NCBI GenBank assembly: GCA_964626845.1
Contig: CAZVGR010000002.1
Location: 69,051 to 133,050, forward strand
DNA from: an uncultured Anaerolinea sp.
GTDB lineage: Bacteria > Chloroflexota > Anaerolineae > JAAEKA01
Reading direction: 5' to 3'
Length of the DNA: 64,000 nt
A program made the position numbers and the translations under genes. Below, piece by piece: positions 4,609 to 58,907 of this stretch (its first letter is position 1; each line of letters begins with the position of its first letter). A model generated the notes under the pieces. The model had not been told where the DNA came from, ran no database searches, and saw only the letters and a program-made list of their open reading frames with translations.

Positions 4609-4834
4609 GCCTTCATTTTGGAAACGTCTGTCCCTCCCTGTGCGCATCGGACTGCTCGCTGCGGCCGTGGCCATTCTGCTGGCCGTGATCGGGATCGCGC
4701 GCGGCAATGTGCCGCTCAACCCCCTCAGCATCCTGCTGGCCCTGCTGATCTCCGGCGGCACGTGGGGCCTGGTGGCCTGGGCTGTGGCCACGGCGGCAGT
4801 CGATGTGGAGAGCGACGTAACGAGTAACGAGTAA
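4586..4834 (+). CDS. Small two-helix membrane protein (hypothetical)
   Basis: 82 aa with two hydrophobic helices. It overlaps the upstream gene by 23 nt. Its 3' end (VTSNE) is encoded by the GTAACGA heptamer array of a repeat element. Confidence 0.3.
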   Translation: MMSTPTAKPSFWKRLSLPVRIGLLAAAVAILLAVIGIARGNVPLNPLSILLALLISGGTWGLVAWAVATAAVDVESDVTSNE

Positions 4835-4967
4835 CACGTAACCCGGAATGGGAGAAGCCTCTCCGGTTACGCATTACTCGTTGCTCGTTACAGGATATCG
4901 GCGACCTGCCATACCAACCCACGCCCCCCACTCATCCGGTTACGCATTACGCATTTCGTGTTACGCA
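4818..4967. repeat. Family-C palindromic element: GTAACGA / GTTACGC heptamer-arm hairpin plus a second partial copy
   Basis: gtaacgagtaacgagtaacacgtaacccggaatggg..ccggttacgcattactcgttgctcgttac is an inverted repeat, followed by the partial ccggttacgcattacgcatttcgtgttacgcac. A homologous element sits at 20747..20838. Confidence 0.55.
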
Positions 4968-4983
4968 CTACCCCAGACCTGCC

Positions 4984-5793
4984 ATGACCACACACGTCTC
5001 CCTTTCCTCCGCCCGCGCCTTCCTGCTGGACGGCGACGGCGTGCTGTATCGCGGCGCTGAGCCGCTGCCCGGCGCGCGGGCCTTCATCGACGCGCTCAAC
5101 GCCAGTGGGACGCCCTATCTGCTGCTGACCAACAACGCGGCGCGCACGCCGCAGCAACTGGCCGCCAAGATGGTCCCGATGCAGATCGCCATCGACGCTG
5201 AACACATCTTCACGTCGGCCCAGGCGACGGCGCTGTGGCTGCAATCCCGCTACCCGGCTGGCGCGCGCGTGCTGGTCGTGGGCGAGGACGGGCTGCGCGT
5301 GGCGCTGACTGAAGGCGGTTTTGTGCTGGTGGATGACTATCAGGCGGCCGAACTGGTGGTGGCCGGGCTGGATCGCAGCGCAACCTATGCCCGGCTGACC
5401 GAGGCCACGCTGGCTATTGGCCGCGGCTGCCCCTTCATCGCTACCAATCCCGACCTGTCGATCCCCACTGAGCGCGGCATCGAGCCGGGCGCGGGCGCGC
5501 TGATCGCGTTCTTGCAGGCTGCCACCGGCGTCACCCCGCCCATGATCGGCAAGCCAGCCGCGCCGTTCTTTCACCAGGCAATGACTCGCCTGGGTGTTGA
5601 TCCCCATGAGACAGTGATGGTCGGCGACCGCTACGAGACCGACATTCTGGGCGGCCACAACGCCGGAATTCGCAGCGCGGCCGTGTTGACTGGCGTCAGC
5701 AGCGCGGCCGAATTCGCCGCCGCCGACCCGCCGCCGACCTGGGTGTTCGAGGACCTGGCCGCGCTGCTGGCGGCCTGGCAAGGCGTATTGTAG
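4984..5793 (+). CDS. HAD-superfamily hydrolase, subfamily IIA (NagD-like sugar-phosphate phosphatase)
   Basis: 269 aa. N-terminal LLDGDGVLYRG (HAD motif I DxDGV), TNN motif II, and a C-terminal GDRYETDILGG motif IV typical of HAD-IIA. Confidence 0.8.
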   Translation: MTTHVSLSSARAFLLDGDGVLYRGAEPLPGARAFIDALNASGTPYLLLTNNAARTPQQLAAKMVPMQIAIDAEHIFTSAQATALWLQSRYPAGARVLVVGEDGLRVALTEGGFVLVDDYQAAELVVAGLDRSATYARLTEATLAIGRGCPFIATNPDLSIPTERGIEPGAGALIAFLQAATGVTPPMIGKPAAPFFHQAMTRLGVDPHETVMVGDRYETDILGGHNAGIRSAAVLTGVSSAAEFAAADPPPTWVFEDLAALLAAWQGVL

Positions 5794-5835
5794 AACAATC
5801 CGCTGGATTGTTCGACCGCAATCCGGCGGATTGCG

Positions 5836-6330
5836 TTACGGGGCAGGAGTCTGGCTCGCCACCCACTGGATCAGCTCGACCTGTTCGGGGCGTTCGGCGT
5901 AGGAGCCAGCCGAGTAGACGCGCTGGCTGGCCTCTGCAGCCGGAATCCCCAGCGCGGCCAACACGCAACTGGCGACCGTGCCCGTGCGGCCCACCCCGGC
6001 TGCGCAGTGCAAGAGGATGTTGTCGCCGTTGCGCAGGTCAGCCGCGAGGCTGTTGACCAGATGCAGAAAGCTGGCCCGGTCGCTGGGCACGCCGTAATCG
6101 ACGATAGGGAACATGCGCTGCCGCCAGGGCACATCGTTGCCCTGTAACGCGCGGGCGTAAGCGGGGGCTTTGCCAGCGATCTCTTCCAGCGAGGTCAGGC
6201 AGACCACCTGGGTGATCCCCTTGATGCGCACTGCATCCAGGGTGGCTTGAAAAGGCTCGTAGCGGCCAGGCATACTGTGCAAATAAAGCCGGCCCGGCAC
6301 ATCAGGGGGCAGATCGACTAGTCGAAACAT
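5836..6330 (-). CDS. Protein tyrosine / dual-specificity phosphatase (CX5R)
   Basis: Active-site P-loop HCAAGVGRTG. Track ORF 5836..6453 is trimmed to M42 (MFRLVD..) because the upstream 41 codons are read through a Family-A repeat element. Confidence 0.75.
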   Translation of the reverse strand: MFRLVDLPPDVPGRLYLHSMPGRYEPFQATLDAVRIKGITQVVCLTSLEEIAGKAPAYARALQGNDVPWRQRMFPIVDYGVPSDRASFLHLVNSLAADLRNGDNILLHCAAGVGRTGTVASCVLAALGIPAAEASQRVYSAGSYAERPEQVELIQWVASQTPAP

Positions 6331-6354
6331 CAACGCCTCAAAAATTCGGAAAGG

Positions 6355-6466
6355 GTAACTACTCAGCCACAGGCGCCGGGCACTTGCCTTTGCACCTCCA
6401 GCGACGTCTGTCGAACCGATTTCAGCCGTCCACGGGGTGCAAGTGCCCGGCACCTGTGTAGTAACC
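6355..6466. repeat. Family-A ~110-bp palindromic element, copy 1 (diverged)
   Basis: Outer inverted arms ..ACTCAGCCACAGGCGCCGGGCACTTGC ... GCAAGTGCCCGGCACCTGTGTAGTAAC with the conserved core GTCTGTCGAACCGATTTCAGCCG. Confidence 0.7.
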
Positions 6467-6479
6467 TGGAAAGGGTGAT

Positions 6480-7391
6480 TTACGCTGCGTCGTCCTCAAA
6501 CATAGCCGCCAAGGCATCGCTCTCCTGTTCGTCCAGGATTTCGCCCAGCTCCTCGCGGCTGAAGATGTAGCGCTCGTGGCAGAAGTGGCAGTCGACGACC
6601 GCCTCGCCTTCGACGATCAGAGCCAGCAGGTCATCCTCGGTCAATACTTTGAGCGCCTGGCGGGAGCGCGCGCGGCTGCACGAACAACTGAAAGCCAGCG
6701 GTTGCTGCTCCAGCACGGTGTAGGCCAGGCCATCCAGCGCCCGCTCCACAATCTGTTCTGGCGTATGGCCGGCCGCCAGATAGCTGGCCAGCGGCGGCAG
6801 GGCGGCCAGGTTTTCCGCCACCCGCTGCAAGACGTCGGCGCTGGCCGCTGGCAGGGGCTGAAAAAGCAGCCCGCCGGCCGCAACCAGCGCGCCCTGCGCA
6901 TCCAGAAGCGTGCCGATCTGCGTCAATGTCGCCGTTTGTTCCGATTTCTCGAAGTAGTGATTGAGGCTGGCGCCCACGCCGCCGTCCTGAACCGCCACTG
7001 CGCCCTGGTAAAGGCCGCGCAGGCCCAGGTCCTTGACCACGGTCAGCAGGCCAACGCGGCCCAGCGCAGCGGCTGCGGCGTCGCCATCGATGGGCAGCGG
7101 CCAGGGCGTGTCGTGGGCGGCCACATAGCCGCGCACGCGTCCGTTGGCGTCCGCCTCGACCACCATCTTGCCCAGCGGGCCATCAGCCTCGATCTTCAGG
7201 GCTACCCGCTGCCGCACCTTGAGCAGCCCGCCCAGCAGCGCAGCCGCAGTCAGCCCATCGCTCAGCGCGGCTGCGGCGATGGGCGTTGCGCTGTGGCGGC
7301 GCGCCCCCTCGCGCGCCAGCTCGCTGGTGACGCAGACCAGCCCGCGCAGGCCGGCTTCTTTGCTCATCACACGTATTGTATAATCGTTCAT
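6480..7391 (-). CDS. hslO: Redox-regulated chaperone Hsp33
   Basis: 303 aa. C-terminal zinc centre CSCS...CHFCHERY (CxC-Xn-CxxC) and an N-terminal Hsp33-like domain. Confidence 0.85.
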   Translation of the reverse strand: MNDYTIRVMSKEAGLRGLVCVTSELAREGARRHSATPIAAAALSDGLTAAALLGGLLKVRQRVALKIEADGPLGKMVVEADANGRVRGYVAAHDTPWPLPIDGDAAAAALGRVGLLTVVKDLGLRGLYQGAVAVQDGGVGASLNHYFEKSEQTATLTQIGTLLDAQGALVAAGGLLFQPLPAASADVLQRVAENLAALPPLASYLAAGHTPEQIVERALDGLAYTVLEQQPLAFSCSCSRARSRQALKVLTEDDLLALIVEGEAVVDCHFCHERYIFSREELGEILDEQESDALAAMFEDDAA

Positions 7392-58232: not shown

Positions 58233-58241
58233 CTGGCACAG

Positions 58242-58273
58242 GACGACAGGCTGAAAAAGCCTGTCGTTTTTTG
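58242..58273 (+). terminator. Intrinsic terminator after tRNA-Val
   Basis: GACGACAGGCTGAAAAAGCCTGTCGTTTTTTG. Confidence 0.65.
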
Positions 58274-58277
58274 ATAG

Positions 58278-58370
58278 TGCTACTCAGGTGCCGGGCACTT
58301 GCAGTTCATTGGCGGCTGAAATTGGCTCCACAGACTTCGTCAGCAGGCGCAAATCTAAGTGCCCGGCACC
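58278..58370. repeat. Family-A element, copy 6 (inverted orientation)
   Basis: TGCTACTCAGGTGCCGGGCACTTGCAGTTCATTGGCGGCTGAAATTGGCTCCACAGACTTCGTCAGCAGGCGCAAATCTAAGTGCCCGGCACC. The core is the reverse complement of the other copies. Confidence 0.8.
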
Positions 58371-58410
58371 GGGGCTTGGCCGGCTGTCAGGCCGGTCTTG
58401 CGCCGCACGT

Positions 58411-58439
58411 TTGACAAGACTGTGGATTGCTCCTATAAT
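58411..58439 (+). promoter_or_regulatory. Consensus sigma70 promoter TTGACA-17-TATAAT for the thrS leader
   Basis: Perfect -35 and -10 hexamers with a 17-nt spacer, about 500 nt upstream of thrS. Confidence 0.6.
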
Positions 58440-58445
58440 CAGGCT

Positions 58446-58830
58446 GTACTCAGACACCGAGCCAATTGCCCGGCGTCTGACCCATAACGAACGCGTTGAC
58501 CGGGACGAGTAGACGTCAGCAAAGCGCCAGAGAGCGGCAGCCGCGGCTGAGAGCCGCCGCAGCAGAGCAGCGTCGAAAACCACCCGGGAGCGGTTGGCGG
58601 AACGGCAAGCGGTATTCGCTAAACGGTAAACGGTCAGAAGATGACGGATCACCGGTTACGGATTACCGATCCCCCAGTATGCTGGCCCGGCTGGCCCCGT
58701 TACAGGCCGCAACGAGATGGCGTATAACCGCACGATTTGGAAAAGCGTGCTACGGTCAGCGCCTCAAGTTGGGTGGAACCGCGATCGACCCTCCTCGCCC
58801 CAACAGGTGAGGAGGGTTGTTGATTCACGC
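58446..58830 (+). promoter_or_regulatory. T-box riboswitch leader of thrS (tRNA-Thr sensing antitermination)
   Basis: T-box consensus AAGTTGGGTGGAACCGCG at 58765-58782 (cf. AAnnnGGGTGGnACCGCG). This is immediately followed by terminator ACCCTCCTCGCC-CCAACAGG-TGAGGAGGGT plus TTGTTGATT. The UGGA bulge fits a U73 discriminator. A candidate specifier GAAAACCA (ACC = Thr) sits at ~58565. Confidence 0.65.
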
Positions 58831-58837
58831 AGCAGTT

Positions 58838-58907
58838 CGGTAGATGGGTAGATTGGTGAACTGGTAGATTGGTGGGGCGTGCAAACGACCAATTTACCAA
58901 TCTACCA
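58838..58907. repeat. Family-B palindrome (TAGATTGGT arms), copy 2
   Basis: ggtagatgggtagattggtgaactggtagattggtg-gggcgtgcaaacg-accaatttaccaatctaccactttaccag, between the T-box terminator and the thrS RBS. Confidence 0.6.

Follow-up and report, generated by a model that had tools for sequence, protein, structure and literature searches.

In Xanthomonas, each genome carries 70-75 convergent pairs of GGGAATC heptamer arrays capable of forming stem-loops (Rehm et al., 2015; PMC4692102), the arrays varying in length across related species with the single or paired type preserved (PMC4692102). In filamentous cyanobacteria, STRRs (short tandemly repeated repetitive sequences) give rise to hairpins in the hupS-hupL spacer as well as upstream of hoxW (PMC2670836) and, according to the title of Vioque (1997), are found in the gene for RNase P RNA in heterocyst formers. 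Direct repeats of TAACTGA in marine Beggiatoaceae, cyanobacteria, and Bacteroidetes were proposed as a regulator-binding site (MacGregor, 2015; PMC4679880), heptamers were the commonest of the 5-11-nt units among long simple-sequence repeats of bacteria, with polymerase slippage proposed for them (Mrazek, 2007, as cited in PMC4679880 and PMC4692102), and (GATAGRA)n of Chloroflexus aurantiacus, with 22 heptamer-derived satellites, tops the list of bacterial satellites (Subirana and Messeguer, 2019; PMC6749651). Compensatory slippage was put forward for rRNA expansion segments (Hancock and Dover, 1990, as described in PMC1888808). The 64-kb stretch of DNA analyzed here (the window), which is part of a Caldilineales-like Chloroflexota chromosome (GC ~65%), contains STRR-like tandem arrays of 7- or 8-nt units; about half of the sites hold an array and its reverse complement around a short asymmetric center, giving 25-45 bp hairpins. 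These simple-sequence arrays were probably made, and are probably turned over, in place by replication slippage. To our knowledge, heptamer arrays (STRRs) have been known since 1990 and lack an accepted origin or function.

Tandem heptamers and octamers in the window

An earlier note on this DNA, made from its sequence alone, had described intergenic hairpins with tandem-array arms. Tandem Repeats Finder (TRF) recovered arrays of period 7 or 8 at every place cited there and also at 58601-58634, which had been missed. Counted from at least 2.5 copies and with overlapping arrays merged, 21 such arrays were present in the whole window compared to ~1.2 (maximum 4) in 30 dinucleotide shuffles, and six strict array/reverse-complement pairs compared to none in every one of these shuffles. 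In the intergenic DNA alone (8.8 kb, GC 55.5%), 19 arrays were counted, whereas 100 shuffles averaged 0.09 and never gave more than 1, an excess far beyond the chance periodicity that the earlier note had named as able to overturn its claim. The intergenic periods were concentrated at 7 (12 arrays) and 8 (eight), with one array each at 9, 11, 14, and 18 and none at 4-6 or at 10, and the tandem-repeat excess agrees with long simple-sequence repeats as 1-11-nt units beyond compositional expectation. At least seven unit types were identified within the 64 kb (GTAACGA, GGTAGATT, GGTGATC, CGGTAAA, AATGGTC, CAATTGA, AAGTAAAC, and GCAGGTT), all without any run of three G; the octamer GGTAGATT had previously been misread as the 9-mer TAGATTGGT. 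The description STRR-like was apt, covering heptamer and octamer tandem arrays that are non-coding, of many unit types, and often hairpins.

Arms were paired by an inverted-repeat search at seven sites (4817-4891, 20748-20833, 21393-21463, 35101-35199, 55008-55111, 57813-57893, and 58839-58914), being 25-51 nt long, 78-90% complementary, and spaced by 2-31 nt. The folding energies of these seven elements are -42 to -61 kcal/mol (z -5.3 to -8.5), none of 200 shuffles folding equally well, and their arms align best in register, a shift by one unit costing 2-12 matches. The layout of array, center, and reverse complement that the earlier note had ascribed to the sites in general was found at these seven, whereas 24555, 50664, 41164, and 4940 are one-armed, 31597-31650 is self-complementary, and 58601-58670 is weakly two-armed. 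The claimed intergenic placement likewise stood in part: coding sequence makes up 87% of the window, yet 12 of 14 sites fall outside it (P ~1e-9), but 57804-57907 and 58601-58670 are inside an S-adenosylmethionine (SAM) riboswitch and a T-box leader, respectively.

Arrays were present in 10 of the 36 intergenic regions of at least 40 nt, made up of 7/24 co-directional, 2/6 convergent, and 1/6 divergent spacers, the divergent one carrying them within 5' leaders. The usual setting was a same-strand gene pair (dhaK|dhaL, methyltransferase|DJ-1, DJ-1|multidomain PTS protein, permease|permease, and DUF2867|UbiA) with the upstream stop codon in the first unit and the hairpin finishing 10-25 nt 5' of the next start codon. 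The frequent overlap of arrays with stop codons, noted earlier, is largely owing to the units themselves because a 7- or 8-nt unit with TAA, TAG, or TGA closes all frames within three units. On both strands, the 5' arm was the purine-rich one in 17 of 19 informative two-armed elements drawn from the window and from metagenome loci (e.g., 21393-21468, 35099-35199, L032:5355-5429, and L119:3477-3564; binomial ~7e-4, the paralogs being not fully independent). A corollary of this polarity is that the 5' or first-entered arm closes two to three reading frames on either strand in six of the seven window elements. Stop codons as a designed feature of the units were set aside and treated as a corollary, since by a rough estimate ~70% of AT-shifted 7-mers hold a stop triplet on one strand.

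No array hairpin had a T-run 3' of its stem and a terminator scan of the window flagged none as Rho-independent, by which intrinsic termination was rejected; canonical hairpin plus T-run terminators do follow the SAM and T-box aptamers of the window. The earlier view that these are not ordinary terminators was therefore upheld. Comparison by hand placed GGTGATC, GGTGAAC, and GGTAAAC in a series of units at most one base apart, as it did AATGGTC and the reverse complement of CAATTGA. A single unit lineage within the window is not claimed because three linked pairs out of 36 barely exceed chance.

Array-bearing RNA leaders and their turnover among relatives

Array elements are numbered E1 to E12 along the window, and both cis-regulatory RNAs detectable in it bear an array at a helix tip. 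A SAM-I riboswitch aptamer (57763-57964, minus strand; Rfam RF00162) upstream of the aspartokinase gene scored 74.9 bits compared to a gathering score of 44.4 over the full model (positions 1-108), with a sigma-70-like promoter for its leader at 58021-57993. It hosts E11, a two-armed AAGTAGAC/AAGTAAAC octamer hairpin (57804-57907, minus strand; TRF arrays 57804-57837 and 57867-57907; fold -47.6 kcal/mol, z -6.86) that makes the tip of stem P3 grow out to 110 nt, compared to ~11 nt for the family consensus in the cmscan alignment. The thrS T-box leader (58487-58805, plus strand; Rfam RF00230; specifier codon ACC) aligned to the full model (positions 1-219; E 7e-14 over the whole window) and has a perfect TTGACA-17-TATAAT promoter at 58411-58439. 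It hosts E12a, an AACGGTA-type array (58601-58670, plus strand; TRF array 58601-58634) with a partly complementary right half (z -1.4, weakly two-armed), placed by the cmscan alignment in the second T-box stem, whose terminal loop holds it as an insert of 67 nt. The T-box score (72.9 bits) was under the gathering score of 93, largely owing to the array insert, and array-bearing leaders will escape standard annotation. The two-armed GGTAGATT octamer hairpin E12 (58839-58915; TRF arrays 58839-58873 and 58888-58915; z -5.32) comes after the T-box terminator and ahead of the ribosome-binding site and ATG (58938) of thrS. Given these locations in the SAM and T-box leaders and before thrS, E11, E12a, and E12 are certainly transcribed. 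SAM-I P3 and the second T-box stem account for two of the 14 sites, with the RNA core intact in each, and a permissive Rfam scan of the whole window gave the SAM riboswitch, the T-box, and one tRNA only, with no further array-disrupted RNA.

Relatives were compared as metagenome loci (labelled L0xx or L1xx), the aspartokinase and thrS genes being used to reach orthologs of the helix tips. Those found through aspartokinase in a metagenome scan (93, 92, 89, and 68-69% identity) all have the SAM riboswitch. The P3 insert, measured between GGCAACC and GGTGCCAA, was a plain hairpin of 50-51 nt in L090 and L091 (aspartokinase 68 and 69%), 89 nt with weak periodicity in L087 and L088 (89%), 104 nt as (CAGTAAA)3.6 ... 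(ACTGATT)3.6 in L089 (93%), 116 nt with octamers in the window, and 131 nt in L094 (92%) with the window's octamers and right-arm units gained or lost. All P3 inserts compared form hairpins (z -4.2 to -6.9), and in the window, L094, and L089 (arms z -4.6 to -6.9) the repeats on one helix strand are matched by complementary repeats opposite. The heptamer CAGTAAA and the octamer AAGTAAAC have the core AGTAAAC in common, which suggests that the period changed by one base and was then homogenized. The left units of L089 all mismatch their right partners at one identical position, from which it follows that each arm was homogenized on its own.

The second-stem tip of ten Chloroflexota thrS leaders carried between 0 and 10.6 units: L010 and L011 lack an array, L008 and L009 have CAGTGAT x3.6-3.7, L007 has 10.6 one-armed units, L006 has a 14-nt period, and L013, L035, and the window have two arms. 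In the array-less L010 and L011 the stem tip is different as a whole, so that they offer no clean empty site. The match between the unit (G/A)A(T/A)CAGT and the conserved stem flanks GAAC...CAGTAAG points to local seeding. Nearly every unit of the orthologous array reads CGGTAAA in the window vs CAGTAAA in L035, a change that amounts to concerted evolution.

The comparison of orthologous intergenic regions, proposed in the earlier note, also gave variation in unit number: the E10 ortholog in L105 is built of the same AATGGTC unit but is one unit shorter and holds an additional variant, and the E12 ortholog in L035, the closest relative, has kept its left arm opposite a degenerate right side with 66 extra nt. 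Units of the same families recur at non-orthologous sites, GTTACGC lying at L094:36-62 and GTAGACAA occurring twice in that locus. An array opening at a stop codon at L094:933-990 has units that grade through GGTAAGTT, GGTGATT, GGTAGATC, GGTAGACA, and AGTAGACA, linking the GGTAGATT and AAGTAGAC families that occupy separate sites in the window.

The SAM-I P3 and second T-box stem tips amount to a natural experiment that runs from no array through one-armed to two-armed across relatives. As the tips are traceable through unit and period changes, the succession of events is open to reconstruction, and the cost borne by the riboswitch is measurable.

Elements between genes, within proteins, and in other genomes

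E1 (4817-4891; arms 4817-4843 and 4865-4891; TRF array 4817-4842) is a two-armed GTAACGA-type heptamer hairpin identified by TRF and inverted-repeat search upstream of a HAD hydrolase gene (ATG 4984), with 27-nt arms of 89% complementarity and an RNA fold of -47 kcal/mol (z -8.45). It is followed by the one-armed E1b of the same unit family (TTACGCA x4.6; 4940-4971, plus strand; TRF). E2, a two-armed GTAAC-type heptamer hairpin (20747-20839; TRF arrays 20748-20774 and 20807-20826; z -5.59), separates the stop of DJ-1/PfpI (20850) from the ATG (20727) of a multidomain PTS/PEP-utilising gene, both on the minus strand, and is paralogous to E1, with GTAACCCGGAATGG and the flank ACAGGAT in common. 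The stretch of E2 taken as its unique center (20795-20813) carries on in the 7-nt register (CTCCGGA TTCCGGG TTACGAG ...), and part of it looks like decayed or incipient units. E3, a two-armed GGTAGATT octamer hairpin (21393-21468; TRF arrays 21393-21419 and 21437-21468; z -6.65), is located between the minus-strand methyltransferase and DJ-1 genes with the methyltransferase stop (21459-21461) in its right arm, and it has the loop GCGTGCA and the end TACCAGTC in common with E12.

The one-armed E4 is a perfect (ACCAATCT) x5.5 array (24555-24598, plus strand; TRF 100% matches, score 88) that abuts an Fe-S / CCG-domain oxidoreductase gene, glpC-like by gene context, at its stop codon (24600). It adjoins a 112-nt tandem repeat x3 (84% matches) that runs to 24551 after a perfect 20-bp hairpin (24191-24239); this region lies in the 525-nt spacer between the oxidoreductase gene and a class-3 fructose-1,6-bisphosphatase gene and had no Rfam match. 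E5, a self-complementary single array of CAATTGA / AATTGAC x6 (31597-31650; TRF array 31609-31650, and fold), is exactly between dhaK (Dak1 domain, stop 31650) and dhaL (Dak2 domain) according to Pfam.

E6, a two-armed GGTGATC/GGTAATC heptamer hairpin (35099-35199; TRF arrays 35099-35143 and 35176-35199; fold -60.8 kcal/mol, z -7.71), is placed between convergent genes, one of which, for an NTP-transferase, has its TGA stop (35101-35103) inside the element. The variant unit GGTAATC is mirrored as the third unit of both arms. E6 also supplies the last six codons and stop (ELISDQ*, 35183-35203) of a 107-aa ORF, as the earlier note had stated, which is correct if that ORF (GC3 0.85) is real. E9, a one-armed array of GGTGATC / GGTGAAC / GGTAAAC (50664-50708, plus strand; TRF array 50672-50708, and fold), lies between two ABC permease genes (Pfam BPD_transp_1 on both) with the upstream TGA stop inside it. 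E10, a two-armed AATGGTC heptamer hairpin (55008-55111; TRF arrays 55013-55049 and 55068-55106; 51-nt arms, 78% complementary, z -7.68), spans from a DUF2867/NmrA gene (stop 55015-55017, in the first unit) toward a UbiA prenyltransferase gene (ATG 55120), with the ribosome-binding site GAGGAG directly 3' of it.

The short array E7 (GCAGGTT x3.6; 41164-41188, plus strand; TRF) begins 7 nt past the stop codon of the H+-pyrophosphatase gene (Pfam H_PPase). Downstream of it and of the parB stop, 41265-41408 contains a perfect 16-nt x2.1 direct repeat (TTTCGTGCATTCCCAA) and, at 41339-41408, a 27-bp hairpin of 96% complementarity. A long inverted repeat without tandem units (49633-49750; 53-nt arms, 79% complementary) lies between two genes and has a 76%-identical, non-syntenic copy at L094:1727-1843. 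A further dispersed repeat of ~95 nt resembles MITEs (miniature inverted-repeat transposable elements), with inverted ends CAGGTGCCGGGCACTTGCA ... TGCAAGTGCCCGGCGCCTG and 90-95% identical copies, all intergenic, at 58279-58375 (plus), 57572-57660, 14892-14988, and 15660-15718 (all minus), with a fragment at 45768-45794; in L035, the orthologous spacer from tRNA to T-box lacks it.

Arrays were also found inside protein-coding sequence. E8, an (ACCGTTC) x5 array (45090-45124, plus strand; TRF and translation) inside ORF 44088-45692, encodes part of a 16-residue insert, ALTVHRSPFTVHPSHF, that is absent from the L011 ortholog as a BLASTP gap (vs L011:3389-4726). The translation of 45090-45124 reads ALTVHRSPFTVHPS and not PFTVHRSPFTVH, the peptide earlier given for 45084-45120, and the ORF had no Pfam or NCBIfam match, the label GT-C being not confirmed. 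In a close relative, a PurD-like (phosphoribosylamine-glycine ligase) ORF (L088:43-1380) has an in-frame insert just before the LEFNCRFGDPE motif, consisting of a 45-nt repeat x4 (SRYGADAYSTHGAEG) followed by (ACCGTTC) x8.7 (RSPNTVHRSPFTEHRSPFTV) with a TVHRSPF-type peptide as in E8. No frame of ACCGTTC contains a stop codon on the coding strand of the insert, and such stop-free in-frame inserts fit a mutational process filtered by tolerance.

The window was assigned to a Caldilineales-like Chloroflexota because its threonyl-tRNA synthetase (58938-60764) came closest to those of metagenome-assembled genomes from Caldilineales (90% identity), Caldilineaceae (82%), and Anaerolineales (78%). Its genes are ordinary, including glycerol/dihydroxyacetone metabolism, ABC transporters, H+-pyrophosphatase, ParB, RecJ, thrS, and aspartokinase. 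AT-shifted period-7/8 arrays are enriched in this phylum, with 3.0 per 10 kb in the window, 0.95 in 22 Chloroflexota-labelled loci, 0.02 in 33 Actinomycetota-labelled loci, and 0.34 in 25 other loci. Two-armed cases were identified in Herpetosiphonaceae (L040), Chloroflexales (L032), two Chloroflexota-labelled loci (L007 and L009), and two taxon-less loci (L031 and L119). The 4.2-kb contig L119 (65% GC) has three two-armed heptamer hairpins of AGTCGGC and ACGATGA (1208-3565), and the 8-kb contig L154 (43% GC) at least eight arrays of differing 7-8-nt units (315-7966). A literature search gave no paper tying STRR-like arrays to Chloroflexota beyond the satellite survey (PMC6749651).

Exact-protein look-ups with ThrRS and DhaK gave no match, and those with UbiA and DJ-1 returned the same strain only, 100% identical, on short contigs ending at E2 and at the 112-nt repeat. 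Three independent short-read contigs of the strain (L167-L169) stop 46 nt past the DJ-1 stop inside E2 (window ~20804), and one begins within the 112-nt repeat. Palindromes longer than the assembler k-mer break assemblies, so that elements are under-counted in short-read metagenome-assembled genomes; together with arrays that push riboswitch and T-box scores below curated cut-offs, this is a practical concern.

Replication slippage as the probable origin, its rivals, and known repeat systems

By replication slippage, AT-shifted arrays of 7- or 8-nt units would form where they now stand, gain and lose length there, and switch to other units, and they would persist where extra sequence is tolerated, such as co-transcribed spacers, 3' ends, 5' leaders, RNA helix tips, and occasionally protein loops. 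A pre-existing hairpin may act as the seed, and a unit gained in one arm could be matched in the other by a second slippage through which the arms pair again (compensatory slippage). The arms may instead have been mirrored by intramolecular template switching, an established process in quasi-palindromes. In the SAM P3 and second T-box stems, where the hairpin is an RNA helix, selection would keep the helix closed, and whole elements may now and then be copied to other loci. Function would be secondary and not sequence-specific, leaving the arrays near-neutral, with a stable stem-loop that protects or insulates cistrons of a polycistronic mRNA, or all-frame stops at the entry point, as candidate roles. 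By analogy with Escherichia coli, the asymmetric 2-31-nt center may allow the palindromes to survive SbcCD-type hairpin nucleases. Among the mechanisms raised in the earlier note, slippage seeded at a hairpin fits best, given arrays at two RNA helix tips and relatives that differ in unit, number, and period.

Several observations weigh against slippage as the engine. The sample is one 64-kb window plus fragments of relatives, and a slippage event was never seen directly, the short-read contigs of the strain being all 100% identical across E3 and E10. The shared loop and flank of E1/E2 and of E3/E12 imply that some elements spread as whole units, where plain slippage fails. The purine-rich 5' arm is not predicted by plain slippage, nor is the recurrence of the unit family C(A/G)GT(A/G)A(A/T/C) at unrelated sites and genomes explained by it. 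When both strands were folded, the better-folding strand was the sense strand at four to five sites and not at three to four, a mixed G.U signal.

Chance periodicity, low-complexity intergenic composition, or an assembly artifact is extremely improbable as a source. The AT shift of intergenic DNA (55.5% vs 65% GC) makes chance repeats slightly likelier, but composition-matched shuffles gave 0.09 arrays and no pair against the 19 and 6 present, and orthologous arrays were found in assemblies from other studies. E3 and E10 are present base for base in independent short-read assemblies of several runs, for which reason the array sequences are no assembly artifact. It is possible but unlikely that pre-formed palindromes were inserted at gene boundaries and RNA loops as small non-autonomous mobile elements of the foldback, MITE, or repetitive extragenic palindrome (REP) type, by a trans-acting enzyme encoded elsewhere that recognizes hairpin structure or a short motif, the sub-repeats being its binding sites or products of slippage after insertion. 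Whole-element paralogy within 64 kb (E1/E2 and E3/E12, with the shared sequences given above) and the unit families at non-orthologous sites of L094 would agree with such insertion, as would the MITE-like repeat, its four or more window copies showing that small palindromic DNA does get mobilized in this genome. Against this, a Pfam scan of the 50 window ORFs gave no transposase, REP-associated tyrosine transposase, special nuclease, or other candidate (the matches being housekeeping genes such as those for RecJ, an Exo_endo_phos protein, a PIN toxin, and ParB), and neither target-site duplications nor fixed termini were seen by eye at E1, E2, E3, and E12; the nuclease or transposase recognizing structure that the earlier note had suggested found no backing in the same scan. 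The array paralogs are also far more diverged than the 90-95% identical MITE-like copies, orthologous helix tips change unit, period, and arm number gradually without filled and empty states, and the T-box unit resembles the conserved motif flanking it.

Selection for cis-acting elements, either hairpins for T-run-independent termination, insulation, or mRNA stabilization or multi-site platforms for an RNA- or DNA-binding regulator, is a doubtful alternative. The placement in co-directional (7/24) and convergent (2/6) spacers with the sole divergent case within 5' leaders, hairpins that begin at stop codons and finish 10-25 nt before start codons, closure of two to three frames on either strand by the 5' arm in 6/7 elements, and a polarity that suggests constraint are all in its favor. 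Cyanobacterial STRR hairpins have been proposed to act on transcript stability or translational coupling (PMC2670836), and regulator binding was suggested for the TAACTGA repeats (PMC4679880). However, at least seven unrelated unit types in 64 kb speak against a single sequence-specific binder, the 7-8-nt period is out of phase with the DNA helix, and unit number and sequence turn over among close relatives. Nor is such a function expected of arrays in riboswitch or T-box helix tips and protein loops, the hairpins lack a following T-run and left the terminator scan blank next to canonical terminators, and no consistent sense-strand G.U signature was found.

Replication slippage, the favored reading, leaves the polarity, the sharp period, the recurring unit family, and whole-element spread unexplained, which keeps in play, as a long shot, a dedicated process that extends hairpin tips by 7-8-nt units with the purine-rich arm 5' and is common to Chloroflexota, filamentous cyanobacteria, and Xanthomonas. 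Its driver could be a hairpin-acting enzyme (nuclease, primase-polymerase, or reverse transcriptase) or a special property of the replisome. If true, the arrays would be bacterial "expansion segments" remodelling riboswitches, T-boxes, RNase P RNA, and even protein loops. The polarity, with the purine-rich arm 5' on both strands, is a constraint that any mechanism must account for.

The architecture of an array and its reverse complement is not novel, being already known from Xanthomonas pairs (PMC4692102) and cyanobacterial STRR hairpins (PMC2670836), with Chloroflexus heptamer satellites (PMC6749651) as a further precedent. As in Xanthomonas, the window combines high GC and intergenic heptamers with two same-unit arrays in convergent orientation (seven pairs) and a G- or purine-rich arm first on each strand; it differs in having at least seven AT-shifted units without G-tracts and with period 7 or 8 in place of one G-rich, G-quadruplex-capable unit, and no link to riboswitch or T-box helices was reported in Xanthomonas. 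Cyanobacterial STRRs resemble the window arrays as tandem heptamers of several unit types that are dispersed, mostly intergenic, hairpin-capable, and also within structured RNA, in filamentous hosts. The RNase P RNA STRRs of heterocyst formers reportedly lengthen helix P12. STRR1-3 are CCCCAGT, TTGGTCA, and CAACAGT, and the window units differ from them, the nearest being one base from STRR2 and STRR3. The window is unlike the cyanobacterial case in its Chloroflexota host, its period-8 arrays (8 vs 12 of period 7) outside the classical definition, the two-armed form of about half of its sites, and a riboswitch and a T-box leader as RNA hosts.

The TAACTGA repeats are likewise intergenic heptamers (2-6 units) just 5' of start codons or overlapping an upstream ORF's end, and on the other strand read CAGTTAT, one base from the CAGTGAT/CAGTAAT units detected here and from the family C(A/G)GT(A/G)A(A/T/C); unlike the window, they have a single unit that was inverted in 1/170 sets. 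REP sequences, bacterial interspersed mosaic elements (BIMEs), and MITEs are comparable as dispersed-copy families of small extragenic palindromes at gene boundaries inside operons. The window elements are unlike these in that their arms are tandem arrays and that neither a conserved family sequence or associated transposase nor terminal inverted repeats or target-site duplications were seen in the window; in place of the near-identical copies of one palindrome that characterize REP/BIME, the paralogs share units, a loop core, and a few flank bases. Paired inverted arrays, octamers, and RNA-helix hosts in Chloroflexota were unreported in the two repeat surveys, that of long simple-sequence repeats as far as it is summarized in later papers, and Chloroflexus has one dominant unit.

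rRNA expansion segments, as they are outlined in the account of compensatory slippage, share with the P3 and T-box tips extra sequence at a stem-loop tip, repeats on one helix strand matched opposite, and length variation among relatives. In that account they belong to eukaryotic rRNA, SRP, and RNase P RNAs, unlike the bacterial mRNA leaders of the window, where, moreover, most elements are outside known structured RNA and the unit is sharply 7-8 nt. The window thereby widens the host range of the STRR-like phenomenon to Caldilineales-like Chloroflexota, and new compared to the described systems are this host lineage, the co-occurrence of numerous unit types having periods of both 7 and 8 nt, the explicit polarity rule, and arrays as outgrowths of riboswitch and T-box stems with a series across relatives.

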